Assembly: GCA_963743305.1 (NCBI GenBank)
Contig: CAVUPH010000033.1
Coordinates: 1-64,000, forward strand
DNA: 64,000 nucleotides
DNA from: an uncultured delta proteobacterium
Lineage (GTDB): Bacteria > Desulfobacterota > RBG-13-43-22
Direction of reading: 5' to 3'
Numbering within the stretch: the first letter of the stretch is position 1; each line of letters starts with the position of its first letter. The translations under genes and the position numbers were made by a program. Under the pieces are notes generated by a model. It saw only the letters and a list, made by a program, of their open reading frames with translations, ran no database searches and was not told the origin of the DNA. Shown here in pieces: positions 22,200-51,432 of this stretch.

Positions 22200-22205
22200 A
22201 GGGAA

Positions 22206-29326: not shown

Positions 29327-29334
29327 AAACTATA

Positions 29335-30906: not shown

Positions 30907-30982
30907 TGGCGACCTGAGGGGTAAGGGGGCACATTTTATAACGCCCCCGGTTTTTTTTGATAAGTACTACCCATATATAGTA

Positions 30983-31303
30983 GACGCTTCGCCCTTTTGG
31001 GTGGGTACCCCCATAGCTGGTATGGCGGCGGGGTCTCGGCGAAAGGGTTATCCAAAAGTACTCCGGACTTCGAATCCGGGCCTAAATTACTAGCTATATT
31101 TAAAGCAGGCCCATACTCCGAGTCTATTGACGCCTCCCAGACCGGCCCTGCCTCCGGGAAGATTTGATAACACGGGGGCCGGGTTAGAACCTAAAAAGCA
31201 ATTTGGAAAACCCTTTCGCCGAGACCCCGCCGCCACGAAGGGCCGATTTCAGACTAAGCTGTTATATTATATTGTGGCCATCCACCCCCAAAGGCGAACA
31301 ATC
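30983..31303. mobile_element. Dispersed ~320-bp non-coding element, copy A (arm X - IR - core - IR - arm Y)
   Basis: 34-bp IRs at 31023-31056 and 31202-31235 (1 mismatch); homologous to 46071-46390, 51121-51432 and 42286-42517. Confidence 0.8.
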
Positions 31304-31345
31304 ATATAATATAATGCCCGAGGTTTTTTAGAAAGAAAAATTTAG

Positions 31346-31373
31346 TTGACAGATAATAAAAAACATTTAAAAT
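31346..31373 (+). promoter_or_regulatory. Putative sigma70 promoter of tRNA-Gly/rimP operon
   Basis: TTGACA-16nt-TAAAAT with an AT-rich upstream region. Confidence 0.55.
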
Positions 31374-31384
31374 AATAAGGTTAA

Positions 31385-31460
31385 GCGGGCATAGCTCAGC
31401 TGGTAGAGTACAAGCTTCCCAAGCTTGGTGTCGCGGGTTCGAATCCCGTTGCCCGCTCCA
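31385..31460 (+). tRNA. tRNA-Gly (CCC)
   Basis: GCGGGCA acceptor stem, TAGCTCAGCTGGTAGAG D-arm, caagc-tt-CCC-aa-gcttg anticodon arm, GGTTCGAATCC, encoded CCA. Confidence 0.97.
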
Positions 31461-31602
31461 ACGCTTAACGGAGCCAGGTAGTTCCCTTTTTGAGGTGGGC
31501 CTTTGGTCTGGTCGGATGAAAGGCCATAACTTCGAATAGCGGATTATTGATAGTTTCAGAAACATTAGTCCAAGAAAGTATCAATTTTATTTCTGCTGTG
31601 CG

Positions 31603-31628
31603 AAGTGGGCTCCGGCCCACTTTTTTTG
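31603..31628 (+). terminator. rimP leader hairpin / attenuator
   Basis: AAGTGGGC-tccg-GCCCAC followed by T8, 23 nt before rimP. Confidence 0.75.
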
Positions 31629-31651
31629 TGTCCAGGGGGAGATAGAGGAAA

Positions 31652-32122
31652 ATGGGCCAGTTGCCGGAAGAGGCCTTCACTAAAATCAAAACGCTGGCCG
31701 AATCCCTCCTCCAGGAAGAAAAAATGGAATTGGCGGATATGGAATTGCTCAGGGAGGGCCGGGGATGGGTGCTTCGCCTGTTCATAGATAAAACCGGTGG
31801 GATCACCTTGGACGATTGCGCTTCCGTCAGTCGACAGCTCGGGGACCTGTTGGAGGTGGAAGACCTTATCCCCTTTCGCTATACCCTGGAGGTCTCTTCC
31901 CCGGGTTTGGACCGGCCCCTTAAAAAGGACCAGGACTTCTTGCGCCAGATCGGCAACCCGATCCAGGTCATAACCCGGAGTCCCTGGGAAGGACGGAGTT
32001 TCTTTAAGGGGAAAATGTTGGATTATCAGGTGTCCGGCACTCTTTCGCTGGCTGATGAGAAAAAAGTCTGGGAGATCCCGGTTTCCCTCATTGCTAAAGC
32101 CCGTTTGGTGTTTGAGGGCTGA
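31652..32122 (+). CDS. rimP: Ribosome maturation factor RimP
   Basis: LRLFIDK.GGITLDDC, YTLEVSSPGLDRPL. Confidence 0.96.
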   Translation: MGQLPEEAFTKIKTLAESLLQEEKMELADMELLREGRGWVLRLFIDKTGGITLDDCASVSRQLGDLLEVEDLIPFRYTLEVSSPGLDRPLKKDQDFLRQIGNPIQVITRSPWEGRSFFKGKMLDYQVSGTLSLADEKKVWEIPVSLIAKARLVFEG

Positions 32123-32141
32123 TTTATAAGGAGAAAAAACT

Positions 32142-33575
32142 ATGGGCCTGATTCAACGAAAAGAAAAGGATTTGACCGGCGGGATTTCTCTGGATCTTAA
32201 ACGCGTCATTGACCAGGTCAGTCGTGATCGGGGCATAGATAAACAGATACTCATTTCCACCTTGGTCGAAGCGATTCGCCAGGCCGCCAAAAAAAAATTA
32301 GGGCTTAAACAGGAAATCGAAGTCACTTACAACGAAGAATTGGGCGAGGTCGAAGTCTTTGAATTTAAAGAGGTGGTGGAAAAAGTCAAAGACCCCCAGA
32401 CGCAGATTACCATGGAAGAGGGCCGCAATCTGGACCCGGAGTGCGAACTGGGAGACAGCTTGGGCATTAAGATGGAGACCAGTTCATTCGGACGGATTGC
32501 CGCCCAGTCGGCCAAACAGGTTATCATCCAGCGGATGAAAGACGCTGAACGGGATATTATTTTTGAAGATTTTAGAGACCGCCGGGGAGAAGTGATAAAC
32601 GGCATCATCCAGCGCTTCGACAAAGGAGCGGCGATTATCAACCTGGGGCGAACCGAAGCCATACTCCCGGTGACCGAACAAATTCCCACGGAGACTTATA
32701 AACAGGGGGATCGCTTAAGGGCCTATGTGCTGGAAATAAAAAAGATCAGTAAGGGTCCGCAAATCATCCTCTCCCGCACCCATCCCCAATTTGTGGCGGC
32801 TTTGTTTGAAATGGAAGTCCCGGAAGTATCGGAGAAGATCGTTCGGATTATCAATGTGGTCCGGGAACCGGGCGGCCGGACCAAGATTGCCGTGGCTTCG
32901 GATGATAGACAGGTGGATCCGGTGGGGGCCTGTGTGGGCATGAAAGGCAATCGGGTTCAAAACGTCGTTCAGGAATTGCGGGGTGAAAAGATCGATATTA
33001 TCCCCTGGAACCCGGACCAGGCCAAATATATCTGCAGTGCTTTGGCCCCGGCCGAAGTCGTCCGGGTGATCATCGACGAAATAAGCCGTTCCATGGAAGT
33101 GGTCGTGCCCGATGACCAATTGTCCCTGGCCATCGGCAAACGAGGGCAGAATGTTCGCCTGGCCTCCCGTTTAACCGGATGGAAAATCGATGTTAAAAGC
33201 GAATCCAAGTACGACAAGTCCATTAAGGATGGATACCAGTCCCTGCTGCAGATTGCCGGTGTGGGAGAAGTGACGGCCGATGTCCTTTACAAAAAAGGCT
33301 TCCAATCCGCTCAAGAGGTGGCCGAAGCCTCGATAGAGGAACTCATCGAGGTCCCCGGCTTGAGCCAGAAAAAAGCCGAAAAGCTTTTGGAGTCGGCCGC
33401 CTCCTACGTCCAGCTCGAGCGTCAAAAAGACGCCCTGGATAAACAAAATCAAGCCCTGGAAGAGGAACAACGGGTCGCTACCGAAGCGGCGGCTACCGAC
33501 TTGGCTCAAGAGCCGCTCGAAGTGCCCGAAGTGCCGGAAGAGCCGAAGGCCGATGAACCGGAGGAACAGCAATAA
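32142..33575 (+). CDS. nusA: Transcription factor NusA
   Basis: FGRIAAQSAKQVI, DPVGACVG, LSLAIGKRGQNVRLAS. Confidence 0.98.
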   Translation: MGLIQRKEKDLTGGISLDLKRVIDQVSRDRGIDKQILISTLVEAIRQAAKKKLGLKQEIEVTYNEELGEVEVFEFKEVVEKVKDPQTQITMEEGRNLDPECELGDSLGIKMETSSFGRIAAQSAKQVIIQRMKDAERDIIFEDFRDRRGEVINGIIQRFDKGAAIINLGRTEAILPVTEQIPTETYKQGDRLRAYVLEIKKISKGPQIILSRTHPQFVAALFEMEVPEVSEKIVRIINVVREPGGRTKIAVASDDRQVDPVGACVGMKGNRVQNVVQELRGEKIDIIPWNPDQAKYICSALAPAEVVRVIIDEISRSMEVVVPDDQLSLAIGKRGQNVRLASRLTGWKIDVKSESKYDKSIKDGYQSLLQIAGVGEVTADVLYKKGFQSAQEVAEASIEELIEVPGLSQKKAEKLLESAASYVQLERQKDALDKQNQALEEEQRVATEAAATDLAQEPLEVPEVPEEPKADEPEEQQ

Positions 33576-33869
33576 ATGGCGGCGGCTATTCGGGAAAGAA
33601 CCTGCCGGGCCTGTCGACAAAAAAGGGAAAAAAGCGCCTTCCTTCGTTTGGTGATCCATAAGGATTCTGTGCTGGAAGCGGATCCTGAACAGGTCCTGCC
33701 GGGCAGAGGCTGGTATCTTTGCCTCCAAAAAAATTGTTTATCGATTTTCGACAACCCCAAACAATGTCGCCGAGCCTTCGGTCCCTTTAGGCAGGTAGGT
33801 CCGATTCTCTGCGAATATATTAAGAATCCGCTGGTAGGGGGTACCCATGACCAAAATGCGCGTATATGA
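33576..33869 (+). CDS. ylxR: YlxR/DUF448 (RnpM) protein
   Basis: RTCRACR...LRLV...GRGWYLC between nusA and infB. Confidence 0.85.
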
Positions 33870-36408
33870 GTTAGCTAAAGAATTGGAGATGGAAAATAAG
33901 GTCCTGGTGGACGCCATACGGGAGATGAGTATCGAGGTTAAAAGCCATTCTTCATCGCTCTCCGACGAGGAAGTGGCGTTAATTAAGGGCCATCTTAGCG
34001 GGACCAAATCTTTGGTAGTGGAGGAACAACGGATCAAATCCACAGTCATTCGCCGCAGAAGGAAGGTCGTGGAGGTGGTACCGGAGCCGGAGGTAGAAAT
34101 TCCAGCTATCGAACCCCCTCCCCAGCCGGAGCTGGAAGCACCTCCGGCGCCAGAGCCACCCCCTCCCAGCAAACCGTCGCTGGAAACACCAGAGGAACGG
34201 GAAATGGCGGGTGCCCCATCCGCACCCCCGGAAAAACCACCCTTGAAAGAAGAGTTGGATCGACCGGCTAAACCGGCTCCGGAGGTTCTCCCTAAACCGG
34301 TCAGGCCACCCAAGCCACCTAAAATGACTCCGGCCAAAGTGATTCGGGCGGCTGAGCCGGTCGCCCCCCCAGTTCCAGCTCCAGCTCCGGCGCCGGCTAA
34401 GAGGATTGAAGAAAAGAAGGAGGAAGAGACTCCCAAAAAGGAAAAAGTTCCCATTAAAAAGGGCTTAAAAACCACTCGGGTGTCGCCGGAAACGGAAACG
34501 GCGAAGTCCAAGGTATTCAAAAAACGAAAAGAAATCCTGGAACGCGCGGCGCTCTACGATGATTCCGCCCGGGAAGGTCGTCCCGGAAAGGGGATGAGAA
34601 GCGGTAAATCGGCAGCCAAAAAGTATAAAAAAACCGAAATCACCACGCCGAAGGCCAGCAAACGCCGTCTCAAAATTTCCGAGGCTATCACGGTAGCCGA
34701 ATTGGCCAAGCGGTTGGGCGTGAAAAGCGGCGAGTTAATGAAAAAACTCATCGCCTTGGGTCTGATGGTGACCTTGAATCAAGCCATTGATTATGAGGCC
34801 GCCGCCTTGGTGGCCGCCGAATTCGGGTACGAAGCCGAAAAGGTTTCTTTTGAAGAGGAGCAAGCTGTCCGCTTACATACCGATCAACCGGAAGAACTAA
34901 AGCCACGACCTCCGGTGGTCACCATTATGGGTCATGTGGATCACGGGAAAACCTCTCTTTTGGACTTGATTCGAAAAACCAATATCACCCAGGGGGAAGT
35001 CGGCGGCATCACCCAGCATATCGGAGCGTATCACGTCAAGCTGGATCGAGGGGAGATCGTTTTTTTGGATACCCCGGGCCATGAGGCCTTTACCGCTATG
35101 CGGGCCCGGGGGGCCCAGATTACCGATATCGTGGTGTTAATCGTGGCGGCCGACGACGGGGTCATGCAGCAGACCAAAGAGGCCATCGATCATGCCCGCG
35201 CGGCGGGAGTGCCGATTATTGTAGCCATCAACAAGATCGATAAGCCCAACGCTAACACAGAACGGGTCAAAAGGCAGTTGGCCGAATACGGACTGGCGCC
35301 GGAAGACTGGGGAGGGGAAACAATTGTGGCCGAAGTCTCGGCCAAAAGCGGCCAGGGGGTGGACCATCTTCTGGAAATGATCCTGCTGCAGGCCGAAGTC
35401 TTGGAATTAAAAGCCAATCCCAAAAAACCGGCCCAGGGGCGAGTGGTGGAAGCCCGGTTGGATAAAGGGCGGGGGCCGGTGGCTACGGTCCTCATTCAGG
35501 GAGGGACCCTCAAGGCCGGAGATCCGTTTATCTGCGGCATTCATTTTGGGAAAGTACGGGCCCTCTACAACGATTGGGGGCAAAAAGTGGATCAAGCTCT
35601 CCCCTCCAGCCCGGTGGAGGTCCACGGTTTCAGTGGGGTGCCCAATGCCGGAGAGGAGTTTCAGGTCAGTGAAGACGAGCGGATGGCCAAGCAGGTCAGC
35701 CTGTACCGGGTGCAGAAAAAAAGGGAGGCCGAACTCTCCAAGACCAGTAAGCTCACCCTGGAAAAATTGTACGAACAAATACAAGAAGGCCAGGTCAAAG
35801 AGCTGACGCTGATTCTGAAGGCCGACGTCCAGGGATCCCTCGAAGCCATCAGTGAGGCCCTGAACAAATTAAGCACTGCGGCGGTAAAGGTCGTTACCCT
35901 TCACAGTTCCACCGGAGCCATCACCGAGACCGATATCATGCTGGCCTCGGCTTCCAAAGCCATCATCATCGGTTTCAACGTTCGCCCCAATCCCAAGGCC
36001 CAGGAATTGGCGGAACAGGAACAGGTGGACGTCCGTTTTTACGATATTATTTATAATTTGGTTTCGGAAGTGAAAGACGCTATGACCGGCATGCTGGACC
36101 CCATCCATAAAGTGGTGGTCAACGGTCACGCCGAAGTCCGTGAGTTGTTCCACGTTCCCAAGGTGGGCACCGTGGCCGGGTGCGGCGTCACGGATGGGAA
36201 GATCGACCGCAATGCCAAGGCCCGCCTCCTCCGGGACAACGTGGTGATCTTTGACGGTCGCCTTTCCTCCCTGCGGCGTTTCAAGGACGATGCCCGGGAA
36301 GTCTTGGCCGGTTTTGAATGCGGCCTCAGCCTGGAAGGGTATAACGATATTAAAGTCGGGGATACGATTGAGTCGTACTATCTGGAGGAGGTCAAGGCCA
36401 CGCTGTAA
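33847..36408 (+). CDS. infB: Translation initiation factor IF-2
   Basis: [31 protein letters not shown]. Confidence 0.99.
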
Positions 36409-36471
36409 GGGCCCTTTTTTGGATTCAAGGGTCTAAGAACCCGAACGTTGCTTTTCAGAGACTGGAAAACG

Positions 36472-36759
36472 ATGGTTATTGGCGTCCTGGAAATAGTCCT
36501 TTGGCTGCCTGAGTCCCATTCCCTGAAGGCCAAGCGTCAGGTTATCAAGAGTCTCAAGGATAAAGTGAGAAACCGGTTTAATGTCTCCATCGCCGAAGTG
36601 GGCGATCAGGAGTTGTGGCAAAAAGCCCATTTGGGAATCTGCAGTCTCAGTAACAATCGCCGGGAGGTCAATGCCCGTTTAGACCAGGTAGTCAATTTCG
36701 TAGAGCGGCTGCAGGTGGCTGTGGACCTGGAGTTTCGCCTGGAAATGATCGATTATTAA
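36472..36759 (+). CDS. DUF503 (YlxP) protein
   Basis: SHSLKAKRQVIKSL...FNVSIAEV..QELWQ. Confidence 0.9.
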   Translation: MVIGVLEIVLWLPESHSLKAKRQVIKSLKDKVRNRFNVSIAEVGDQELWQKAHLGICSLSNNRREVNARLDQVVNFVERLQVAVDLEFRLEMIDY

Positions 36760-36783
36760 ATTAGGACGGACTTGCCAATTAGG

Positions 36784-37155
36784 ATGATAAAAACCAACGT
36801 CGGCAGACCCAAACGAACCGGACAGGTTGGAGGGCTGATCCAGAAAGAAATTTCCGATCTGCTCCTGCGCAAAGTCAAAGACCCTCGCCTGGAGATGGTG
36901 ACTATTACCGGCGTGGAGGTCTCTCCGGACCTGAAGCTGGCCCGAGTTTTTTTCAGCCGCCTGGGAAATCCCGAGGAAATCCAGAATACCTGGCAAGGAT
37001 TGAAAAAGGCCTCGGGTTTCATTAAACGGGAATTGGGCGCTCGATTGCACTTACGGCATGTGCCGGAGGTGGAATTTTTTCACGATACTTCTTTTGAATA
37101 CGGCGACCGGATCGAAGGACTGTTGCGGGGCCTTAAAAAAGATCAGGAAGAATAG
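36784..37155 (+). CDS. rbfA: Ribosome-binding factor A
   Basis: VKDPRL..VTIT.VEVSPDLKLARV, LRHVPEVEF. Confidence 0.95.
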   Translation: MIKTNVGRPKRTGQVGGLIQKEISDLLLRKVKDPRLEMVTITGVEVSPDLKLARVFFSRLGNPEEIQNTWQGLKKASGFIKRELGARLHLRHVPEVEFFHDTSFEYGDRIEGLLRGLKKDQEE

Positions 37156-37164
37156 CCCTAGACC

Positions 37165-38118
37165 ATGCTGAAAAAAGAACCCCCAGCGGATCTCCATTCT
37201 CCTAGACCCTCCCCCTGGGAAGGTGTTTGGGTAATAGACAAACCGCCGGGACGCACTTCCCATCAGGTTTTGCAGAAATTCCGGGCACTTTCCCGGCACC
37301 GCAAAATGGGGCATATCGGCACCCTGGACCCTTTAGCCACCGGGGTATTGCCAGTCTGCGTGGGGTGGGCTACCAAGCTGATCCCCTTTATTTCCGTATC
37401 CCCCAAGGTTTACCGGGCCCAGATGGTCCTGGGCCGGTCTACGGACACGCAGGACGTTTCGGGGCAGGTCCTCCAAGTGTCCCTTGAACCGCTCCCCCGG
37501 CCCGAGGCTATTGTGAAAGCCTGCCAATCCTTTGTCGGGACCCAACGGCAGATCCCCCCGGTATATTCGGCCCTTAAATTTCAAGGCCAACCCCTTTACC
37601 GCTGGGCCCGGAAAGGAAAACCGATAGTCAAACCATCCCGGGAGATTACCGTTGAATCGATCCGGATTTTGGAAATCGAGGGGGGGGTAGTTGATTTCGA
37701 AGTGACCTGTTCCTCGGGCACCTATATTCGAACCCTGTGCGCGGATATAGGCACACTGCTCGGTTGCGGGGCTTATTTAAATACGCTGCAGCGAACCCGA
37801 AGCGGACCCTTTACCCTGGAACAAGCCGTCCCCTGGAAAATTCTGGAGCAAGCGGCCTTTCAAGGGGGGCAGGAAGCCTGGAGGCTGCCCTTGGATTTTA
37901 TCCTGGGGCAATACCCCCAAGTTAAGGTTGAGGAAGCCTGGAAACAAAAAATAAGGCAGGGTTGTTGGATCGAACCCGAGGAGGCCCTTTCCGAGTGGCC
38001 GGCAGTTCAACCCGGTGAACCCGTTTGTGTGATCAGTCCGGAAAACCATTTACTGGCGATTTATCACCTCCCCGGGGATTTGAAAAGAGAACTCAAACCC
38101 CTGCGGGTTTTGATTTAA
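37165..38118 (+). CDS. truB: tRNA pseudouridine(55) synthase
   Basis: DKPPGRTSH, GHIGTLDPLATGVL, PPVYSALK, SGTYIRTL. Confidence 0.96.
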   Translation: MLKKEPPADLHSPRPSPWEGVWVIDKPPGRTSHQVLQKFRALSRHRKMGHIGTLDPLATGVLPVCVGWATKLIPFISVSPKVYRAQMVLGRSTDTQDVSGQVLQVSLEPLPRPEAIVKACQSFVGTQRQIPPVYSALKFQGQPLYRWARKGKPIVKPSREITVESIRILEIEGGVVDFEVTCSSGTYIRTLCADIGTLLGCGAYLNTLQRTRSGPFTLEQAVPWKILEQAAFQGGQEAWRLPLDFILGQYPQVKVEEAWKQKIRQGCWIEPEEALSEWPAVQPGEPVCVISPENHLLAIYHLPGDLKRELKPLRVLI

Positions 38119-38147
38119 TTTATTAACTTAAACGAAGGAGGTCTAAA

Positions 38148-38417
38148 GTGGGATTAACCTTAGATCAGAAGAAAGAAGTTTTAGGTAAGTTTAGTGTCCA
38201 TCCAACCGACACGGGATCCCCTGAAGTCCAGATTGCCCTGTTGAGCGAGCGAATTAAATACCTGACGGAACATTTCAAGACCCATGCCAAGGACCATCAT
38301 TCCCGACGGGGACTGCTGAAGTTGGTCGGTCAGCGAAAGCGATTACTGGGTTACCTCAAGAAAAAGGATGCTCAGCGGTATCGTAACCTTATTCAGGAAC
38401 TGGGGATTCGTAAATAA
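38148..38417 (+). CDS. rpsO: 30S ribosomal protein S15
   Basis: [26 protein letters not shown]. Confidence 0.99.
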
Positions 38418-38453
38418 ATCCCCTGGGTTCCCAATTAAAAGGAGTATGTTTGA

Positions 38454-40550
38454 ATGCCTCATCAATTAACGACTGAAGTCAATGGCAAAACTTTAAGTAT
38501 AGAAACCGGTCGCGTGGCCAAGCAGGCCACCGGAGCGGTATGGGTCCAATACGGCGAAACGATCGTCCTGGTCACCGTGGTCTCCACCCAGGACGTCCGG
38601 GAGGGGATCGATTTTCTTCCTCTCACCGTGGATTACAAGGAGATGGCCTATGCGGCCGGACGGATTCCGGGAAGCTTTTTCCGAAGAGAAATCGGCCGTC
38701 CCGGTGAAAAAGAAACCCTCACCTCCCGTTTGATCGACCGTCCTTTGAGACCCCTGTTTCCCAAGGATTATTTTTATGAAACCCAGGTGATTGCCACGGT
38801 CCTTTCGGTGGATCAGGAAAACGATCCCGATATTTTGGCAATCATCGGGGCTTCCGCGGCTCTGGAGATTTCGGATATTCCCTTTCAGGGGCCGATTGCC
38901 GGGATTCGCGTCGGCCGCATCGAGGGGGAGTTGGTGCTCAATCCTACCAGTTCTCAACTGAAGGACAGTGATTTTAATATCATCGTGGCCGGCACCCAGG
39001 AGGCGGTGGTCATGGTGGAAGGCTGGGCGCGGATGACCAGCGAAGAGGACTTGGTCCGGGCTATTTTTTACGGCCATCAGGGGATGCAAGGCATCCTGGA
39101 AATGCAAAAAAAACTAGCTCAACTAGTCGGCCCCAAGAAAAGAACCTGGACGGGCACACCGGTCAATGAAGAATTGACGGCCCGGATGACCGCTGCCGCG
39201 GCACCCGCAGTGGCCGAGGCCTTGACCCTGTCCGGGAAAATGGAACGCCACGAGCGGATGCGGGAAATCCTGCTTGACCTCCAACAACAATTTGGCGAAG
39301 ATCCGACCCACCGTCCTCTCATCAGGAAGATATTTGAAAACCTGGAACGGGACACGGTTCGACGGATGATCGTCAAGGAGAAAAAAAGAATTGACGGTCG
39401 AAAATTTAACGAGGTCCGCCCCATTTCTTGTGAGGTCGGGGTTCTTCCCCGGACCCATGGATCGGCCCTGTTTACCCGGGGGGAAACGCAGGTCCTGGCC
39501 GTGGCCACCCTGGGGACTTCCTCCGATGAGCAGCGGATAGATTCCTTGATCGGAGAGACCTTCAAGTCCTTCATGCTTCATTACAATTTTCCACCCTTTT
39601 CCGTGGGCGAGGCCCGAATGCTCCGGGGACCGGGACGAAGGGAAATCGGGCATGGGGCCCTGGCGGAACGCTCCCTGCTTCAGGTGCTGCCCAGCAATGA
39701 CACCTTTCCTTACACGATCCGGATCGTTTCCGAGGTGCTGGAATCGAACGGTTCTTCCTCCATGGCCACGGTCTGTGGCGGCAGCCTGTCCCTGATGGAC
39801 GCCGGGGTGCCCATCACGGCCCAGGTAGCCGGTATCGCCATGGGCTTGATTATGGAAGAGGAGGAGGTAATCATTCTAACGGATATTCTGGGGGATGAAG
39901 ACCATTCGGGCGATATGGATTTTAAAGTAACCGGCACCGTGGAGGGCGTCACCGGTTTACAAATGGATATTAAAGTCCAAGGGGTCAACCAGGATATTAT
40001 GGGACGGGCGCTAGAACAGGCCCGGGAGGCCCGGCTGTCTATTCTGGCCCTGATGGAAAAGACCATCGCCCAACCACGAACCAGCTTGTCCGACTATGCG
40101 CCCAAAATAACCACCATTGATATCAATCCCGAAAAGATCCGGGAAGTGATCGGGCCGGGGGGAAAGGTTATCCGGGCCATTGTCAGTGAGACCGGGGCTA
40201 AAATCGAGGTGGAAGATTCAGGGAGAGTTATTATCGCCTCTCCGGACGGGAAAAGTTCGGAGAGGGCCATTGCCATGATCATGGAAATCGTCCAGGAAGT
40301 GGAAATCGGGCGTTTGTATATGGGAAAGGTGAAAAAAATAATGGACTTCGGGGCCTTCGTCGAAGTCCTGCCCGGGACTGAGGGGCTGATTCACATCTCT
40401 CAACTGGATAACCATCGGGTCAACAAGGTGACCGATGTCCTTCAGGAAGGGGACGAAGTGCTGGTCAAGGTGCTGGAGATGGATAAGCAGGGAAAAATCC
40501 GATTAAGCCGGAAGGCCGCTTTGGGGCAATCCCTGCCGGAGAAATCCTAA
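38454..40550 (+). CDS. pnp: Polyribonucleotide nucleotidyltransferase
   Basis: [34 protein letters not shown] and S1 domains. Confidence 0.99.
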
Positions 40551-40554
40551 GTCC

Positions 40555-42266: not shown

Positions 42267-42285
42267 TCGGACTTCTCTTCCCCGA

Positions 42286-42517
42286 CCCTTTTGGGGTGGG
42301 TAGTCACAATTTGGCCAATTATCAATAACCAATAATCAATTCTTAATTAATAATTGACAATTGATTAATAACGATTCGTTTTTTTGAAGGGCCTTATTCT
42401 CATGCTTCGGAGTGCCCCTGAACAGGGAGGGTTAATCTGAAATCGGAGCTTTGTGGCCGCCGTGACCCGGCGGCCATAGCGGATATCGATGGTACCCACC
42501 CCCAAGGGCGAAGCGTC
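42286..42517. mobile_element. Dispersed element copy D (core deleted; AT-rich insert in arm Y)
   Basis: Y' arm (ggggtgggtagtcacaa...tctgaaatcgg) then tggccgccg-t-gacccggcggcca, then X' arm ending gggcgaagcgtc. Confidence 0.7.
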
Positions 42518-42547
42518 TCAAAATATTTTTTGTTACGGGTTTAGGCG

Positions 42548-43504
42548 GTGACGGGTTATTTAGGTATTGATGTGGGTTCCATCAGCACCAATCTGGTGGT
42601 GCTAGGCGACTCCGGAGAAGTGGTGGCCAAGAACTATCTCAGGACCCGGGGGCAGCCTATTCAGGCGGTCCAGCAGGGGCTCAGGGATATTCAAAAAGCC
42701 TTGCCGCCTGGTTTGACCATCGGCCGCGTCGGAACCACCGGCAGCGGCCGTTTTATCACCGGTATCCTGGCCGGGGCGGATGTAATAAAAAATGAAATCA
42801 CCGCCCACGCCTTAGCCGCGATCCATACGGATCCCCAAGTACAAACCGTGCTGGAAATCGGGGGCCAGGATTCGAAGGGAATCATTATCCGCAATGGGAC
42901 GGTGGTGGATTTTGATATGAATACCGTCTGTGCCGCCGGAACCGGATCTTTTTTGGATCAACAGGCCTCCCGCCTGGGGATCCCGATCGAGGAATTCGGC
43001 CCTTTAGCCCTGCAATCCAAAAGACCCACCAAAATCGCCGGCCGGTGCACGGTCTTCGCCGAGTCGGACATGATCCATAAACAACAAATGGGACATACCC
43101 GGGAGGATATTGTGGCCGGCCTTTGTCAGGCCTTGGTCCGCAATTATCTGAATAATCTGTTTAAAGGCAAAGAGATCCGAGAACCCATTCTCTTCCAAGG
43201 CGGGGTGGCCGCCAATCAGGGTATGGCCCGGGCTTTCGAACAGTCCTTGGGTTGCCCCGTCATTGTGCCGCCTCATTATGAAGTCATGGGGGCAATCGGC
43301 ATAGCCCTCCTGGCCAGGGAATCTCGACCAGAACAGGCGGGCACGCGTTTTAAAGGCTTTGATCTGACTCAAGTCCACTACCATTTTAATAGCTTCGAGT
43401 GCACCGGTTGTTCCAATGGTTGTGAGGTCTTCTCGTTTGAGACCGATGAAGATCGGCCCATTTATTGGGGGGACCGTTGTGGCCGCTGGGAAAACATGCC
43501 TTAG
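42548..43504 (+). CDS. 2-hydroxyacyl-CoA dehydratase activator (BadF/BadG/BcrA/BcrD ATPase)
   Basis: GIDVGSIST, TTGSGR, EIGGQDSK, CAAGTGSF, RCTVFAES, C-terminal CTGCSNGC. Confidence 0.92.
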   Translation: MTGYLGIDVGSISTNLVVLGDSGEVVAKNYLRTRGQPIQAVQQGLRDIQKALPPGLTIGRVGTTGSGRFITGILAGADVIKNEITAHALAAIHTDPQVQTVLEIGGQDSKGIIIRNGTVVDFDMNTVCAAGTGSFLDQQASRLGIPIEEFGPLALQSKRPTKIAGRCTVFAESDMIHKQQMGHTREDIVAGLCQALVRNYLNNLFKGKEIREPILFQGGVAANQGMARAFEQSLGCPVIVPPHYEVMGAIGIALLARESRPEQAGTRFKGFDLTQVHYHFNSFECTGCSNGCEVFSFETDEDRPIYWGDRCGRWENMP

Positions 43505-43516
43505 TCGGGGCGTTTA

Positions 43517-43996
43517 ATGGCTATCCAGAAAAAACGAGGAACCATAAACCCGGCGGAACAGGGACGCAGGACCAAAGAGGCTCAACCCTCGGGCAAAAGG
43601 AATGTACCGGATCGATGGCCACCTGATCAAAAGGGGGTCTGCCCGGACCCCGCTCAAGCTCCGAATGATGGAGTGCTACTCGCGGGATTGGAAAAAAAGT
43701 TGAAACGGGCCAACCGGCGTCTGGAATCCTTTCAAACCATCGGGAGACTACAGCGCGCCTTCTTGTCCCTTCAGTCCCATCAAATCCGGGCCCAGTTGCA
43801 TGCCGTCATGGGGTATACCGAATTGGTTTTAAGAAAAACCCAGGGGCAGTTGCCCGCTTCCCAGGCGGAAAATTTGAAGAAATTGTTGCTGAGCGTCGAA
43901 GGCTTAAAAGCCGCCATTGAGGGTTTGGAGGGATTTCCATTGTTGGATCCTAAAAAGTCCCCGACGACAGTAATGAGAAATCCGAATTCGAAATAA
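43517..43996 (+). CDS. Stand-alone HisKA/DHp-like protein
   Basis: Coiled coil followed by FLSLQSHQIRAQLHAVMGYTELV; no HATPase domain. Confidence 0.6.
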   Translation: MAIQKKRGTINPAEQGRRTKEAQPSGKRNVPDRWPPDQKGVCPDPAQAPNDGVLLAGLEKKLKRANRRLESFQTIGRLQRAFLSLQSHQIRAQLHAVMGYTELVLRKTQGQLPASQAENLKKLLLSVEGLKAAIEGLEGFPLLDPKKSPTTVMRNPNSK

Positions 43997-44029
43997 AATT
44001 GGTAAGGAACTAACCTTCGGGAGGTGCTG

Positions 44030-45442
44030 ATGGCCGACAGTACACGCTACCGCATTTTATTGGTCGAAGACCAACCCTTGGAGGCCGATTTTATCCGGCA
44101 AGAACTTTCGGATCAAGGCTATGCCGTCACCTGGGTGCAAGACGGCTTGGAGGCGCTCAGGGTGATTCGGGACACCATTCCGGATTTGGTTTTAATGGAC
44201 ATCCGGCTCCCGAAACTGGATGGGCTCGCCGTGGTCAAGCAAGTGAAATCCGATCCCCAGACTCAGTTCATCCCGGTAATCATGGTCACCGCTTTAACCG
44301 AATTGGAAGAGCGGGTCAGGGGCCTGGATGCGGGGGCGGATGATTATATCACCAAGCCCTTTCAATCCTTTGAACTTTTGGCCCGGATTCGGTCCACCCT
44401 GCGCATCCGTCGCATGTACGAGGACCTGGCCTCCACTCAGGATAAATTGAAAAGAACCCGGGAAGAAAACCGACAGTTGCGCCGGGAGATTCAGGGCAAA
44501 TACTCTTTTAATCAAATCTTGGGACAAAGTGCGGCCATGCGCCAGGTTTTCCATTTGATGGAGAAAGCCGTCGAAAGCCCCATTACGGTGGTCATCCTCG
44601 GGGAAACCGGTACCGGCAAAGAATTGGTCGCCCGCTCGATTCATTATAACAGCCCTCGGAAAGACCGAGCCTTTGTGGTTCAAAATTGCGGGGCCTTGCC
44701 GGAAAGCCTTTTGGAGAGCGAGTTGTTCGGCCATAAGAAAGGGGCCTTTACCGGGGCAGTGGCCGACAAAAAAGGCCTTTTTGAGATGGCCCATGGGGGT
44801 ACTATTTTTTTAGATGAAGTGGGGGATACCCCTCCGGCTTTGCAGGTGCGATTATTGCGGGTGTTGCAGGAAGGTGAAATCCGTCGCCTTGGCGAAGTAA
44901 AGCCCCTGACAGTGGATGTCCGGGTTATCGCCGCCACCCATAAAGACCTGAAAGAGGAAATTAAGGCGGGGAAGTTTCGGGAAGATCTTTTTTATAGGAT
45001 CTACGCCTTTCCCATTCCGCTTCCTCCCCTTTCCGAGCGGACCGGGGATATCCCGGTGCTGGCCGACCATTTCCTCAAGAAATACAATCAGCGTTTGGGG
45101 AAAAACTGTCGGCTCAGTTCAGACTGTTTAAATCTATTGGAAAAATATCCCTTTCCGGGAAATGTTCGGGAGTTGGAAAATGAAGTGGTGCGGGCCCTGA
45201 CCCTGGCGACCGAGGAAGAGGAACTCCGGCCCAGACACTTCTCCGATAGTATTCGGGAGACGGGTTGGGGGTACTCCCCGGTCAAGGAGGGTTCAATTCA
45301 GGATCAAACCAGCCATCTGGAGAAGGCCATGATTGAGGAAGCCTTGAAGGCCTGCCGGGGTAACCGCAGCAAGACCGCCTTGAAGCTGGGTTTGAGCCGT
45401 CGGGGATTATTGAACAAGATTAAGCGGTACGGTCTGGACTGA
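44030..45442 (+). CDS. Sigma54-dependent response regulator (REC-AAA-Fis HTH)
   Basis: LVED, LMDIRLP, GETGTGKE, GAFTGA, FREDLFYR, GNRSKTALKLG. Confidence 0.95.
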   Translation: MADSTRYRILLVEDQPLEADFIRQELSDQGYAVTWVQDGLEALRVIRDTIPDLVLMDIRLPKLDGLAVVKQVKSDPQTQFIPVIMVTALTELEERVRGLDAGADDYITKPFQSFELLARIRSTLRIRRMYEDLASTQDKLKRTREENRQLRREIQGKYSFNQILGQSAAMRQVFHLMEKAVESPITVVILGETGTGKELVARSIHYNSPRKDRAFVVQNCGALPESLLESELFGHKKGAFTGAVADKKGLFEMAHGGTIFLDEVGDTPPALQVRLLRVLQEGEIRRLGEVKPLTVDVRVIAATHKDLKEEIKAGKFREDLFYRIYAFPIPLPPLSERTGDIPVLADHFLKKYNQRLGKNCRLSSDCLNLLEKYPFPGNVRELENEVVRALTLATEEEELRPRHFSDSIRETGWGYSPVKEGSIQDQTSHLEKAMIEEALKACRGNRSKTALKLGLSRRGLLNKIKRYGLD

Positions 45443-45463
45443 AAAGCCGGTGACGAGAATCTC

Positions 45464-46069
45464 ATGAGTAGGAACTCCTCTTGCGCGGGGATCATCTTGG
45501 CCGGCGGTCTGAACAGCCGGATGGCCGGCCGAAACAAGGCCCGCTTGCCCATCGAGGGGCAGACCATCCTGGATCGGCTCGTGCCCCTATTCCGGGCCTT
45601 TTTCGATCCCATCCTGATCGTTACCAACCAGCCCCGGGACTATCTGGATGAAGGAGTAATCCTGGTCACCGACTTGGTCGAAATCCGGAGTTCGTTGACC
45701 GGTATCTACAGCGGCCTGTTTTACTCCCCCCGACCCCATGCCTTCATCGCCGGCTGTGATATGCCTTTTTTGAAACAGGAGCTTCTGGAATTAATTTTGA
45801 AAAATTTAGAGGCCCGATGGGATGTGGTCGTTCCGGTCACTGAGGAGGGGTATCAGCCCCTAGCGGCGATTTATTCCCGACGGTGCTTGGAACCCATTGC
45901 CAGCCAGTTGGCCGAGGGGAAGTTAAAAGTTTCCCATTTTTATTCCCAGGTGAGGATCAAGGAAGTACCCGAATCGAGTTTAAGACAGGTGGATCCGGAA
46001 TTGAAGTCTTTTTTTAACATCAATACCCCGGAAGATATGGATGGTCTGGAACCGTCATTGCAGAAATAA
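45464..46069 (+). CDS. mobA: Molybdenum cofactor guanylyltransferase
   Basis: ILAGGLNSRM, GCDMPF, FFNINTPED. Confidence 0.92.
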   Translation: MSRNSSCAGIILAGGLNSRMAGRNKARLPIEGQTILDRLVPLFRAFFDPILIVTNQPRDYLDEGVILVTDLVEIRSSLTGIYSGLFYSPRPHAFIAGCDMPFLKQELLELILKNLEARWDVVVPVTEEGYQPLAAIYSRRCLEPIASQLAEGKLKVSHFYSQVRIKEVPESSLRQVDPELKSFFNINTPEDMDGLEPSLQK

Positions 46070-46070
46070 A

Positions 46071-46390
46071 GGTTGTTCGCTCTTTGGGGCGGGTGGCCAC
46101 AACCGAGGGAAGATTATCCTGGAATTGGGCCTCCATGGCCGTCGGGTCTCGGCGAAAGGGTTTTCCAAAGGTCCTCCGGACTTCGAATCCGGGCCGAACT
46201 TACTAATTTTATTTAAAGCAGGCCCAAACTCAGAGACTTTTGGTGCCTCCAAGGCTGGCCCTGCCTCCGGGAAGAATTAATAACACGGGGGCCGGGTTAG
46301 AACCTAAAAAGCAATATGGAAAACCCTTTCGCCAAGACCCGACGGCCATACCAGATAGGCGGGGGTACCAACCCCAAAGGGCGAAGCGTC
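46071..46390. mobile_element. Dispersed element copy B (core inverted relative to arms)
   Basis: IRs at 46135-46167 and 46317-46349; arms ordered Y'...X' but core in the same direction as copy A. Confidence 0.8.
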
Positions 46391-46428
46391 AAAATAAAAT
46401 CGACCACCGTTTTTAGTAGGAGTATCGT

Positions 46429-47871
46429 ATGCCTGAATGGGAAGCCGTTATCGGTCTGGAAGTACACGCCCAACTATTGACCGACAGCAAAATATTTTGT
46501 GGCTGCTCCACTCGTTTTGGGGCCGAACCCAACTCCCATACCTGCCCGGTTTGCCTGGGACTGCCCGGTTCGCTGCCGGTTCTGAACAAAAAGGTGGTGG
46601 AGTATACCTTGCGCATGGCCCTGGCCACACAATGCACTATCACCCCGTACAGCCTCTTCGCCCGTAAGAATTATTTTTATCCGGATTTGCCTAAGGGATA
46701 TCAGATTTCCCAGTTTGAAGAGCCGATCGCCTTGGGGGGGAATCTGGAGATAACGGTTCAGGGAATTCCGAAGCGGGTAGGGATCACCCGCATCCATATG
46801 GAAGAGGACGCCGGCAAGTTAATCCATGATGAAAGCCAACCGGTAAGTTACGTGGACTTTAACCGCACCGGGGTGCCGTTGATGGAGATTGTCAGCGAAC
46901 CGGACATGAGGACCCCGGAAGAGGCCGGCGAGTACCTCCGGCGGCTCAGGGAGATCCTCCGATACCTGGGGATTTGCGACGGGAATATGGAAGAAGGCAG
47001 TTTCCGCTGCGATGCCAACAGTTCCCTGCGTCTCAAGGGAGAAACCACCTTGGGAACGAAGGTGGAATTGAAAAACATGAATTCCTTTAAACACGTGGAA
47101 AAGGCCTTGGAATTTGAACTTCGCCGGCAGCGGGCGGTATTGGAAGACGGGGACCTGGTGCTCCAGGAGACTCGACTCTGGGATGCCGCCCGGGGAGTCA
47201 CGCTCCCTATGCGCGGCAAAGAAGAGGCCCATGACTACCGTTATTTTCCGGATCCGGATCTGGTCCCGGTGGAAATCAGCCCGGAATGGATTGATACCGT
47301 CAGGAATAGTCTTCCGGAACTCCCCGGGGCCAAACGCCGTCGTTTTGTCGACGAGTACGGGTTGCCGGAATACGACAGTGAAATTTTGACTTCTTCCAGG
47401 GCCTTGGCCGAATTTTTTGAACAGTGTGTCCGGCTCCACCCCCAGCCCAAGAGCGTCAGCAACTGGATCATGGTAGATTTAATGCGAGAACTCAAGCGAG
47501 AGGAAAAGGAAATCGAATTTTGTCCGATCACCCCCTCTCAATTGGCGACTTTGCTGGACCTGATTCAAGAGGGGCAGATCTCAGGAAAGCAGGCTAAGAC
47601 GGTTTTTGAGGAGATGTTTCAGAACGGCCGGGATCCTCGGGCCATCGTGGAAGGACAGGGAATGGTCCAGATGACCGATCCCGAACAGATCCTTCCGGTC
47701 ATAGAGGAGGTCCTGGAGGTCAGTCCCGGCCAAGTGTCCGAATATCGGGCGGGGAAAAACAAGGTGTTCGGGTACTTCGTGGGCGAGGTCATGAAGCGGA
47801 CCAGGGGGAAGGCCAATCCGAAACTGGTTAACGAACTGCTGAAGAAAAAGCTGGAGGCGGATTATGATTAA
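46429..47871 (+). CDS. gatB: Asp/Glu-tRNA amidotransferase subunit B
   Basis: [37 protein letters not shown]. Confidence 0.98.
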
Positions 47872-48961
47872 AACCATTGACTGGAAAGAAAACCGGGTGG
47901 TCATGATTGATCAGCGCAAGTTGCCCTGGGAAGAAATCTATGTGGTTTGTTCCGAATATCCCCAGGTCATCGAGGCGATTCGGACTATGGTCATCCGGGG
48001 GGCCCCGGCCATAGGGATTGCGGCGGCCATGGGCGCGGCCCTGGGGGCCCAAACCCTAAGCGCGGAAAATCCGGAGCAGTTCAGGAAAGGGTTTCAGAGC
48101 ATTTGCCGCGAAATCGGTGCGGCCCGGCCCACGGCAGTCAATCTGACCTGGGCCTTGGAGCGGATGGCGGCCACGATGGAAGACCGGTTGTCCGGGCGAG
48201 GGATGGCGGTTAAAAACGCGTTGATTCGGGAAGCCCGTCGGATGCTGGCCGAGGACGTGGCCATCAACAAAAAAATGGGACTGATCGGGCAGGAAATGAT
48301 CCGGGACGGAGATACTATTTTGACCCACTGCAATGCCGGGGCACTGGCCACCGGCGGCTACGGTACGGCCTTGGGCGTGATCCGGGCTGCTAAGGCGGCC
48401 GGGAAAAAGGTCCGGGTTTTCGCGGATGAGACCCGTCCCTTTCTCCAGGGGACCCGTCTGACCGCCTGGGAACTGGCCCGAGACCGCATTCCCGTTACCC
48501 TGATCACCGACAATATGGCCGGCTATTTTATGAAGAAAGGGCTGATCGATCGCGTCATTGTGGGGGCGGACCGCATTGCCGCCAACGGAGACGCGGCCAA
48601 TAAGATCGGCACCTATTCGGTGGCGGTCCTGGCCAAGGCCCACCGGATTCCCTTCTACGTGGCCGCCCCTTGTTCCACCATCGATGCCCGGATAAAAACC
48701 GGTGAGGCGATTCCCATTGAAGAACGGGATCCGCGGGAGGTCACCCACTGGCGGGAGCTACGGATTGCCCCGGAAGGCATCAGCGTCCTGAACCCGGCGT
48801 TTGACGTCACCCCGCATTCGTATATTGCCGGGATTATTACCGAGCAAGGCCTCTTAAAGCCGCCCTTCACCCAAAGTATTCGGAAAGCCCTGCGAGGGGA
48901 GGGGAGGCGGGAGATGGAAGATGGAAGAAAGAAGAGGGAAGCAAAAAACGACGCCAGATAA
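47864..48961 (+). CDS. mtnA: S-methyl-5-thioribose-1-phosphate isomerase
   Basis: [41 protein letters not shown]. Confidence 0.96.
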
Positions 48962-49031
48962 AGGAATGGCTGTACTATTCTTTCAAGTTCAAGATGAAGC
49001 CGGCGATTGGCAACCGGGAATCAGATGAACA

Positions 49032-49829
49032 TCACTTTTTTGCCGGTACGATTCTAACCTCCATCATCTTCTCCTCTTTGTACCTCACCAACTCGGCGGC
49101 GCTGCCCAGGTTGCAGGCTATCTCGAGGTACCCGCTGCTGCCGAAAAGGGCCAGAAGGCGGCCCGGTTTTTCCTGGGTGTAGTTTTCCCTGATTCCCCGG
49201 ACGATCCGGCGGCCGATCCGAACGGTCAAATCTCTTTGATCGGAATAACGATTTGTTGCCTCCCGGCTCAGGTTGGTGATGAGGTTGCCGAAGCCGTCGG
49301 CATAGAGTACCTGGCCGATGAGCAAGTTGCTTTTGAACACCGGTTCGGGCAGGTCCAGGAGGACAGGATCGGAAATCGGCTTTCCAAAAGCAGTTATCGG
49401 AAGGCCCCGGCTCAGGTGGGCGGCGGCCGGGGCGAAGATATCCCGCCCGTGAAAAGTTTGGGAAACCGGAGTTAGAAAGTATCTTGGAGTGGTCAGGTGA
49501 AAGATACAAAAATCCGGGAAGGCCCGCAGAATTTGAGTGAATAGGCCGTTGTCGGGGCCGATCCAGTAGTGGTCTCTGGTTTTGACCGCGATCGGCCGGC
49601 GGGCGCCACCCACGCCGGGGTCGACTACGGCCAAGTGAATGGTTCCTTTGGGGAAGTAGCCGGCGATGGCCGCCAGCTTGAAAGCCGCTTCCGGGAGCCG
49701 GTGGTGTGAAAGCCCGTGGGTGATATCCACCAGCGTGGCCGAGGGGTTGATTCCCAGAATAACACCCTTCATGATCCCCACATAGGGGTCGTCCCAGCCG
49801 AAGTCTGTGCTAATGGTGATTATCGGCAT
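49032..49829 (-). CDS. SAM hydrolase (DUF62, SAM-dependent halogenase family)
   Basis: TDFG, VVDPGVG..RR, GPDNG, TFHGRDIFAP, DGFGNLITN. Confidence 0.92.
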   Translation of the reverse strand: MPIITISTDFGWDDPYVGIMKGVILGINPSATLVDITHGLSHHRLPEAAFKLAAIAGYFPKGTIHLAVVDPGVGGARRPIAVKTRDHYWIGPDNGLFTQILRAFPDFCIFHLTTPRYFLTPVSQTFHGRDIFAPAAAHLSRGLPITAFGKPISDPVLLDLPEPVFKSNLLIGQVLYADGFGNLITNLSREATNRYSDQRDLTVRIGRRIVRGIRENYTQEKPGRLLALFGSSGYLEIACNLGSAAELVRYKEEKMMEVRIVPAKK

Positions 49830-49904
49830 TTTTTGACCTTTCGAGAGTCGATTTCTTCCTTATGGTTTCGGGCGCGGCCTGAAACCGTCTTTCGCGGTTT
49901 TAAA

Positions 49905-49933
49905 TTGACAAATTATCCATAATGGAGTATAAA
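49905..49933 (+). promoter_or_regulatory. Putative sigma70 promoter (near-leaderless) of the TA operon
   Basis: TTGACA-17nt-TATAAA 6 nt before ATG 49940. Confidence 0.55.
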
Positions 49934-49939
49934 GGTAGT

Positions 49940-50173
49940 ATGAAAGTCAAGACTTCTGTCACCCTTTCCAGGGAGCTTCTGGAGATCATCGATGCCCGGG
50001 CCAGGCAATCCAAAAAGAACCGGTCTGATTTTGTTGAAACCGCGGTTCGGCTGTTTATCCGGCAATTGGTGCGGGAAGAGCAGAACGCCAGAGACCTGGA
50101 GATTATAAACCGCCGCGCTGATCATCTCAATCGGGAGGCGGCCGACATTCTGACCTACCAGACCCCGCTATGA
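49940..50173 (+). CDS. Ribbon-helix-helix (CopG) antitoxin
   Basis: [15 protein letters not shown]...[10 protein letters not shown]; overlaps the toxin ATG. Confidence 0.85.
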
Positions 50174-50496
50174 AGCGGGGCGAATTGTACCGGGTGGCCA
50201 ATCCCACAGCCAAGGACCCAAAGAAATTCCGGGTCTTTGTAGTGGTCAGTCGCCAGGTGTTGATCGACTCCCGGTTTTCAACAGTCATTTGCGCACCGAT
50301 CTATACGGCCTACGACGGCCTGGCCAGTCAGGTCCCCGTGGGACCGGAAGAGGGCCTCAAGCACGAAAGCAGCATCCACTGTGACGAACTGGTTAGCCTC
50401 TTCAAGTCGGTTTTAACCAATTTTATCGGGACGTTGGCCACGGGCCAAATGGAACAACTGGACCGGGCCCTGCGGATCGCCATGGATCTTCCCTGA
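50170..50496 (+). CDS. mazF: PemK/MazF family toxin
   Basis: MKRGELYRV...RVFVVVSRQ...VICAPI...[13 protein letters not shown]...[11 protein letters not shown]. Confidence 0.9.
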
Positions 50497-50589
50497 TTTC
50501 CATTTTGAACCGATCAGGTCGGCGTGATGGTGTCTCCTCAGGTTTCGCTCTTCCGGGCCGCATTCGATAAAGCCTGATTCCCACCGGTT

Positions 50590-51063
50590 TTCTGATTATC
50601 GTCATCGAAGGATTGAATTGTAGCCGGTTTTATGAGCCTCTCCCGGGATGACCGGACCGCCGCGGCGGTGCTGCCGGCCCTGATCGGGCTGCTGCCCATG
50701 CCCGGGGGGGCACTGTTTTCCGTCCCCATGGTGGAAACGGCCTTGTGCCGCAACCCGATGACCGGGGAACAGCGGACAGCGGTCAACTGCTGGTTCCGGC
50801 ACATCTGGGAATACTGGTGGCCCCTCTACCCGGCGGTGGCCCTGCTGCGGGTGGAACCCTGGCTGTTTATGGCCTTCTTGGCCCCCATGACCGTTGTCAC
50901 GGTCCTGGCCGGCGTACTGTTTATATTGAAACCCCTGGGGTCCGGGACCGTTCGCCAGCAGGCGAGATTTTCCTGGACGGGGCTGAAAGGATTTTTATGG
51001 GAGATTATGCCGATCCTGATCGTGGTCCTGGTCTTTGATCATCCCCCTCGTCGATTTTTTTGA
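50590..51063 (+). pseudogene. DUF401-family membrane protein fragment
   Basis: LPALIGLLPMPGGALFSVPMV, NCWFRHIWEYWWPLYP; lacks N- and C-terminal parts. Confidence 0.7.
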
Positions 51064-51120
51064 TCCATCTCTTCGGCGACTTATGGTCACCGGAAATCGT
51101 TGGTCGACTGGCCAACCATC

Positions 51121-51432
51121 TGGGGGATGGCTACAATATGTGGTAGCTTAGGCTGAATTCGGGCCTCCGTGGCCGCCGGGTCTCGGCGAAAGGGTTTTCC
51201 ACCTTGCTTTTTAGGTTCTAACCCGGCCCCTAGGTTTTCAAATCTTCCAGGAGGCAGGGCCGGCCTGGGTGGCGCCAAGAAACCCGGGGTTCGGGCCTGC
51301 TTTAAATAAAATTAAACACTTAGGCCAGGATTCGAAGTCCGGAGTACCTTTGGAACCTTTGGCAAGGCCTTTCGCCGAGACCCGGCGGCCATACCAGATC
51401 TGGGGGGTACCCAACCAAAAGGGCGAAGCGTC
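51121..51432. mobile_element. Dispersed element copy C (reverse complement of the copy A arrangement; Y end truncated)
   Basis: IRs at 51170-51193 and 51368-51391; core reversed; X' arm ends gggcgaagcgtc. Confidence 0.8.

Follow-up and report, generated by a model that had tools for sequence, protein, structure and literature searches.

An ISL3-type MITE in an uncultured delta proteobacterium carries a recurrently inverting module found within five different element shells

Introduction

Four copies of a dispersed repeat, one with its centre turned round and one with its centre lost, raise the question of what kind of element changes its interior in this way. The copies, A to D, lie in a stretch of 64,000 nucleotides from an uncultured delta proteobacterium (contig CAVUPH010000033.1, positions 1 to 64,000; hereafter the window). 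Each has two different arms, X and Y, and in the complete form these surround an inner inverted repeat that encloses a core. A preliminary description saw in them either a mobile switch resembling an inverton, or an inner MITE (miniature inverted-repeat transposable element) inserted site-specifically and in either orientation into an outer one. Here, we show that A to D are copies of a ~320-bp non-autonomous MITE of the ISL3 family, with target duplications and ISL3-like ends. Its core inverts recurrently after insertion, the arms of its inner repeat are converted against each other, its hairpin is lost by deletion, and its inner module is shared with elements that have other, unrelated ends, which we refer to as shells.

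Results

Re-inspection of the sequence confirmed all four copies with the anatomy first outlined for them. Copy A (30983..31303) is composed of a 40-bp X arm (30983..31022), the first arm of the inner inverted repeat (31023..31054), a 149-bp core (31055..31203) with four conserved GC-rich motifs at fixed spacing, the second repeat arm (31204..31235) and a 68-bp Y arm (31236..31303), all on the + strand. The inner repeat arms measure 32 bp in the copies; the 34 bp given initially are reached only when a chance extension is included. The hairpin end of the core is turned towards X in A and C (51121..51432, - strand), which we call forward, and towards Y in B (46071..46390, - strand), where the reversed core spans 46168-46316 between repeat arms at 46136-46167 and 46317-46348. 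Copy C has lost its Y tip by deletion, and 9 nt are duplicated where one of its repeat arms meets the core (51351-51359). Copy D (42286..42517, - strand) is a deletion derivative that lacks the core and the Y tip; next to its X arm (42477-42517), the hairpin has collapsed (42454-42476) to 9 nt of one repeat arm, a single T and 13 nt of the other. Thus, the opposite core orientation of B and the absence of a core from D both hold as described. The fold of copy A gave a z-score of -7.85 against dinucleotide shuffles. Together with the 134 loci that a hidden Markov model (HMM) profile search found in the source genome, this shows that the arrangement of the repeats is not due to chance. The Y arm of D is split by a second repeat (~42311-42429), ~165 bp long with a very AT-rich palindromic centre, which also sits inside a Y arm at C26:19296-19460 of the source genome. 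This second repeat has 85 whole or partial matches in that genome, five of which touch copies of the main element.

The source genome (G000) comprises 4.9 Mb and is 90% complete. Its 134 loci of the main element are whole or partial, with a full length of ~320 bp. Orientations were counted from HMM architectures: both arms and a core are present with the core forward at 31 loci and reversed at 5, 16 loci retain X and Y only, and the remainder are fragments. No ORF of transposase length lies inside the element. Among the 85 copies from G000 and its relatives that have both tips, 52 are flanked by a repeat of exactly 8 bp matching in at least seven of eight letters, as compared to 1.4% of shuffled pairs. 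Duplications of 7, 9 and 10 bp all failed when tested on these copies, and the duplicated 8-mer is 84% AT. Such duplications, overlooked in the preliminary description, flank A (30975..30982 and 31304..31311, + strand) and B (46063-46070 and 46391-46398), with seven of eight letters identical in each case. Moreover, the site of B is empty in G002 and that of A in G002 and G003, where the left duplication of A occurs as a single copy. A contig of run X2 omits 328 bases at B, which correspond to the element plus one duplication. On two separate contigs (G000:C3:7714 and C16:41278), nearly identical copies share their left flank and possibly represent a duplicated segment or an assembly duplicate.

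The tips of the element correspond to those of ISL3 insertion sequences (IS), whose transposase occurs in 9 of the 21 genomes of the bacterial family. Compared with the ends of an autonomous ISL3 subgroup (L507, L508, L514 and L520), the Y tip matches at 27-30 of 42 positions, with a maximum of 24 for shuffled sequences, and the opposite ends of the same subgroup start like the X tip. Since both tips find their counterpart in this subgroup, we assign Y as the left and X as the right end. The assumption that the element is mobile is therefore substantiated by 8-bp duplications, empty sites and ISL3-like ends. An origin from IS1595, suggested by a shared subterminal box, was dropped, as the ends agree at 22 of 42 positions, which corresponds to chance. 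This box lies ~25 bp from the tip and is common to the Y arm and to IS1595 and ISL3 elements of the bacterial family (L489:1350-1408 and 2355-2413; ends of L507 and L520); we assume that it resembles an NrdR site. Profiles of IS1 and IS6 gave no match in the five genomes searched each time, and plasmid and phage collections contained no match to the element. A viral scan returned 92 stretches, and each of the 80 listed had one match only, which we took as chance. A loose motif-pattern scan of genome contigs yielded mostly unrelated taxa among the matches listed.

The core inverts after insertion, and it does so recurrently. Opposite cores occupy the same junction at G000:C14:361525 and G002:C22:39035, and again at the metagenome loci L559 and L564, whose flanks are 97.5% identical. 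In a further pair (G000:C42:30368 and G002:C25:51596), inversion at the outer repeats has turned the whole interior round and left tips and duplication as they were, and the cores are sisters in the core tree. Swapped tips were found in 4 of 75 copies with both arms. The core tree comprises 94 cores from G000 to G003 over 149 columns, with many unresolved forks. Its 21 reversed cores need 20 changes, at least 8 of them forced by well-supported branches, and they are no more clustered than shuffled labels. A trio initially regarded as one site (G001:C27, G002:C23 and G003:C51) turned out to comprise independent insertions within a single intergenic region and was left out of the count. The opposite orientation found at the site of A in G001 may likewise reflect a second insertion, because G002 and G003 are empty there and L539 has inserted ~30 bp away.

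Flipping appears to be an event of evolutionary time and not phase variation. G000 and G002 have 10 sites in common at which both carry a core (flanks 92-97% identical), and orientation agrees at 8 of them. Taking the share of reversed cores (22%) and the median end branch (0.061), we estimate ~3-4 flips per copy per substitution per site. Phase variation proceeds at rates of 1e-2 to 1e-5 per generation, and the estimated rate of core flipping is far below this. Contigs of four runs at low depth, covering window positions 32000-51990 with A outside, contained no strand-changing joint; they do not bridge the loci, so this result does not bear on switching.

The preliminary description had also claimed that the halves of the inner repeat co-vary within each copy, and this proved correct. 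We compared the arms in 86 of 95 copies, leaving out nine with misregistered arms. The two arms share 136 departures from the consensus versus 24.5 expected by random pairing, including 20 rare paired variants that each occur in at most two copies. For the outer repeat, 12 shared and 152 unpaired departures were counted in 76 copies. Among five pairs compared at fixed sites, one paired arm change was found at G000:C12:134236 and two at C36:48991. Furthermore, one shell arm has been replaced by a copy of the other at G002:C22:421353 and L420.

The coreless forms, D included, are deletions of various kinds at microhomologies. Their joints lie at short direct repeats, e.g. GGCC or GGTC, and lengths from 47 to 167 bp occur among the 16 short forms that retain both tips, with length and junction common to one pair only. 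Full and coreless forms occur at one and the same site (L538 and L566), and two distinct coreless joints (L544 and L562) were found at a site that is full in G001. The site of D in G002 holds a full, core-bearing element at the identical X junction.

The two 32-bp arms and the 149-bp core together form a module of 213 bp, and a divergent match to it in G010 (L009) led us to a second group of copies in other genera. We therefore searched with a covariance model of inverted repeat and core. The module is present in 19 of the 21 genomes of the bacterial family, which are all genomes of the order that were searched, and, stricter filters being applied, in none of 146 genomes sampled elsewhere in the phylum; the match counts per genome include both strands and are not copy numbers. 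Core length is 146-151 bp in 58 of 67 modules, and the span between inner arm ends is 150.5 ± 1.9 in 25 aligned modules. The cores of shell 1, as we term the X and Y ends, and those of other shells are 46% identical, and the four short GC-rich motifs are nearly invariant. Spacing of the third motif was noisy owing to slips of the regular expression, so only total length and outer spacings were used. Each arm consists of two conserved boxes that flank a variable stretch of 8-9 bp.

Four types of ends besides shell 1 enclose the module in related genomes. Shell 2 lacks a terminal repeat and shows TTAG twice at a filled site (L423) and once at the empty site (L633); the pair L621/L622, with a TTA or TTAT boundary, fits less cleanly. 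Shell 3 has terminal repeats bounded by TA, shell 4 has GG...CC ends with 8-bp duplications, and shell 5 has 10-bp duplications (L268, L411). Among the fetched IS ends, the tips of shells 2-5 had no match above shuffled sequences, apart from one further shell-5 tip. A shell signature was recognised on 54 of the 57 module hits outside shell 1, and the other three have worn shell-3 ends as judged by eye; a free module was found neither among these 57 hits nor among the G000 loci. Outside shell 1, too, the core is found both ways round, e.g. 17 to 7 in shell 2, and coreless forms recur as well. In a tree of 54 of the 57 hits and six shell-1 rows, the cores cluster by shell, with 7 changes as compared to a minimum of 4 and to 30.8 for shuffled labels. 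This clustering suggests that shells acquired the module on a few occasions, after which it multiplied along with each of them. In our interpretation, the module predates the shell. Judging from L283 and L445, it may plausibly have been captured by nested insertion, with the old arms deleted afterwards.

We also inspected the surroundings of transposase and recombinase genes, of which only a part of the matches was fetched (e.g. 25 of 48 for Y1). The module was absent beside the fetched Y1, IS110, IS1595, ISL3, IS256, IS4/IS5-type and tyrosine-recombinase loci. In particular, the module model had no hit in the 25 Y1 loci, with which a relation to REPINs was tested, and the idea of an IS110 bridge RNA was abandoned after 15 IS110 loci gave no hit. 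By inspection, the alignment of the module arms contains no constant terminal tag, whereas the tags of REPINs are GTAG or CGTC. G000, G002, G005, G009 and G015 have 7-12 Y1-transposase matches each, mostly in ~330-aa frames and several adjoining IS110 genes. The ends of shell 3 also enclose other hairpin cargo (G000:C13:190743-190912; L389, L390, L395), in one copy just upstream of a RAYT-like ORF. A ~50-bp double-hairpin repeat of genus g4 occurs alone, in tandem, or inserted in the central loop or arms of the module (L127, L132, L134, L141, L278).

The neighbouring genes given in the preliminary description agree with the Pfam and ARAGORN assignments, which are tRNA-Gly, RimP, GatB, a BadF/BcrA ATPase and a RadA-like ATPase. 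Next to copy C, two overlapping tyrosine recombinase genes (PF00589; 51804-53742, - strand) constitute a separate mobile unit of ~2.2 kb, which is single in G000 and occurs in G002 as three copies of 95-97% identity at other sites. A PemK/MazF-type toxin gene and then a DUF401 gene truncated beside copy C lie at 50170-51063; the G002 ortholog continues. Elsewhere in the window, low-complexity AAATCCGAAA-type repeats occur between genes in direct and inverted order (17403-17451, 22204-22322, 29328-29520), and a perfect 27-bp inverted repeat with a 58-nt spacer is located at 1165-1276.

Discussion

We consider it fairly probable that the element is an ISL3 MITE subject to passive inversion, conversion and deletion, which carries an older module that probably aids its propagation. 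An ISL3 transposase would move the X and Y ends in trans into AT-rich 8-mers and thereby duplicate them. Once inserted, each copy would behave like any other long inverted repeat whose arms lie close together. Template switching or recombination between the arms could then copy one arm onto the other, yielding paired changes, and would occasionally flip the spacer, while coreless forms, among them D, could be generated by skipping of the hairpin at short direct repeats. Flipping of the outer terminal repeats would proceed in the same way, only more rarely. We infer both the template-switch mechanism and the flip rate; homologous recombination between the 32-bp arms would give the same outcome and is indistinguishable from it here. 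Template switching has been reported to homogenise arms and invert spacers in the portions of PMC8604942 and PMC5941160 available to us.

The module is probably kept because its full, forward form propagates better. Three observations point to selection on it: the motifs and lengths are stable against a drifting remainder, the family as a whole has retained a long hairpin that is easily deleted, and recent shell-1 bursts are all full and forward, coreless forms being without a burst. A neighbour within 5% was found for none of 15 reversed shell-1 cores and for 20 of 58 forward ones, the latter number being inflated by orthologous pairs. The likeliest way for the module to act would be as a cis-acting hairpin or as a protein-binding array that brings the two ends together, the array version involving a spacing of ~30 bp. 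A further step is conceivable but tentative, namely that the module is a portable, orientation-dependent cis-acting element that raises the mobility of any non-autonomous carrier, with core inversion switching a copy off as a source. If so, shells with unrelated mechanisms would have captured it, and MITEs, not genomes, would be what it parasitises or enhances.

Several points speak against this combined interpretation. No ISL3 transposase was found in the 90% complete G000, and neither the fetched ISL3 loci nor 37 metagenome hits include an autonomous element with exactly these ends; the nearest autonomous ends, in four relatives, are ~70% alike, and autonomous ISL3 elements lack the module. 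Arm length is sharply confined to 31-33 bp in 53 of 67 modules, which a passive process would not predict. The published spacer inversions in yeast, as far as the accessible text of PMC5941160 and PMC8604942 goes, comprise 2-5 bp and are thus far below the 149 bp seen here. Core identity is only 85-89% (61/72 and 64/72) in those inner-flipped pairs that were tested, with pairs lacking an inner flip showing 2-11 core differences in 149; at these sites, copies may therefore have exchanged their cores, or an element may have inserted a second time into the same 8-mer. Finally, the forward-only pattern of the bursts could reflect founder orientation plus age.

How do the alternatives compare? A true inverton, in which an invertase would turn a core with a promoter at the pace of phase variation and thereby control neighbouring genes, appears very improbable. 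The 32-bp repeats around a 149-bp segment do match the size class of invertons in the available part of PMC11892184, the two tyrosine recombinase genes start ~370 bp from C, and in 33 of 35 full copies at least one gene starts away from the element according to crude ORF calls. However, the recombinase unit is single in G000 and its three G002 copies have no module nearby, the repeat arms vary freely at many positions, and the second, unrelated outer repeat pair inverts too. No sigma-70-like site, the only promoter type covered, lies inside A. The 31:5 bias and the agreement at 8 of 10 orthologous sites also count against an inverton. Inversion after insertion is borne out; an active switch is not supported. 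The preliminary idea of an inner MITE with site-specific insertion has fared similarly. Its simple form fails for want of a free module, of a fixed empty junction and of a constant tip or duplication of its own, the outer ends of the module arms differing between shells, but the inner part is indeed a separate entity, as the same module sits in four other unrelated shells. A related possibility, which we regard as unlikely to be correct, is a cassette that a dedicated enzyme excises and reinserts, or swaps, through the 32-bp repeats in either orientation, and that has in this way entered five shells. At least seven shell changes on its tree, a fixed arm length and the two boxes around a variable stretch in each arm would suit such a cassette, and so would the more divergent cores of flipped pairs and the poorer agreement of core and arm neighbours in reversed copies (median rank 9 versus 1). 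This last measure is confounded with age, though, and the cores group by shell and not by genome, coreless junctions vary, the 57 hits outside shell 1 lie in shells, three of them as judged by eye, and the module is absent beside all fetched transposase and tyrosine-recombinase loci.

With somewhat more reason, yet still against the balance of the data, the module could be regarded as functionless, passed between shells by nested insertion and deletion of the old arms, with its apparent conservation due to a few source copies that founded bursts. Nested insertions are common: one shell 1 lies within another (G000:C22:96020), and shell 3 was found next to a shell-4 tip (L283) and next to a coreless shell 2 (L445). 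Shell 3 also bears unrelated hairpin cargo. Against this, every shell examined has examples of long hairpins removed by deletion, yet 19 of 21 genomes have kept the module, its motifs and length fixed while the remaining core has drifted to 46% identity. The same fixed motifs and spacing might instead be those of a structured RNA that is transcribed and travels with other elements as their passenger, selfish or regulatory, as ssr9 does with ISPpu9, a reading to which we give little credence. The fold is strong, 96% of the cells are paired, two-sided changes are frequent in the closing stem, and small hairpin insertions fall at inner arm ends, linkers and the central loop. But all covariation is located within the inverted repeat, where conversion at the DNA level explains it, and two-sided changes are absent from the two inner 4-bp helices; being invariant, these are uninformative on covariation either way. 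Furthermore, no Rfam family reached its gathering score anywhere in the window, a search of six loci with E as high as 10 gave none over the element, and promoter-like hits near A are confined to its downstream side.

Taken together, we favour an ISL3 MITE with passive rearrangements and a module that probably helps it to propagate. As an ISL3 MITE, the element is ordinary, and it is the module shared across shells that is worth following. Around a hundred paralogous and orthologous copies constitute a natural replicate series for inverted-repeat conversion, inversion of a 149-bp spacer and hairpin deletion in a bacterium. The element also shows how repeats can mimic an inverton or a covarying RNA in screens based on sequence only. 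Should the module promote transposition across transposase classes, this would add a new layer to mobile-element biology and offer a direct assay for why some MITEs outdo their parents. In the literature covered, with subscription papers and ISfinder outside it, we found no description of the shell-1 family or of one module common to unrelated shells.

The closest relative among known systems is a 187-nt ISL3-derived MITE of Microcystis aeruginosa PCC 7806, as described in the accessible sections of PMC11448079. Both are non-coding, dispersed and predicted to fold into a hairpin, with 8-bp target duplications and terminal repeats that match ISL3. Our element is longer at ~320 bp, has an internal 32-bp inverted repeat around an inverting core, and exists as old, diverged and not identical copies for which no exact autonomous partner was found. 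Arm homogenisation and recurrent, reversible spacer inversion are shared with template-switch correction; the studies in question, in the parts open to us, searched spacers of up to 70 bp (PMC5941160, PMC8604942), whereas the spacer here measures 149 bp and the process is repeated at ~100 paralogous sites. Invertons likewise are segments between inverted repeats of 10-40 nt in two orientations, judging from the available text of PMC11892184. Unlike these, the core has no linked invertase that we could find and, in copy A, no sigma-70-like promoter, its orientation is biased and changes slowly, and mixed orientations do not show in the low-depth contigs, which do not bridge the loci. With REPINs and their RAYTs, as portrayed in the sections of PMC3116915 at hand, the module has in common that it is lineage-wide, long-lived and extragenic, with paired inverted arms; it differs in never being free but always lying within the ends of another element. 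A short non-coding module between IS ends, spread by the transposase of that IS, is also represented by ssr9 of ISPpu9 from the IS110 family, according to the portion of PMC12288879 available. There, ssr9 is a demonstrated small RNA tied to a single IS, while the module reported here, so far known through its sequence, inverts and is carried by five unrelated shells.

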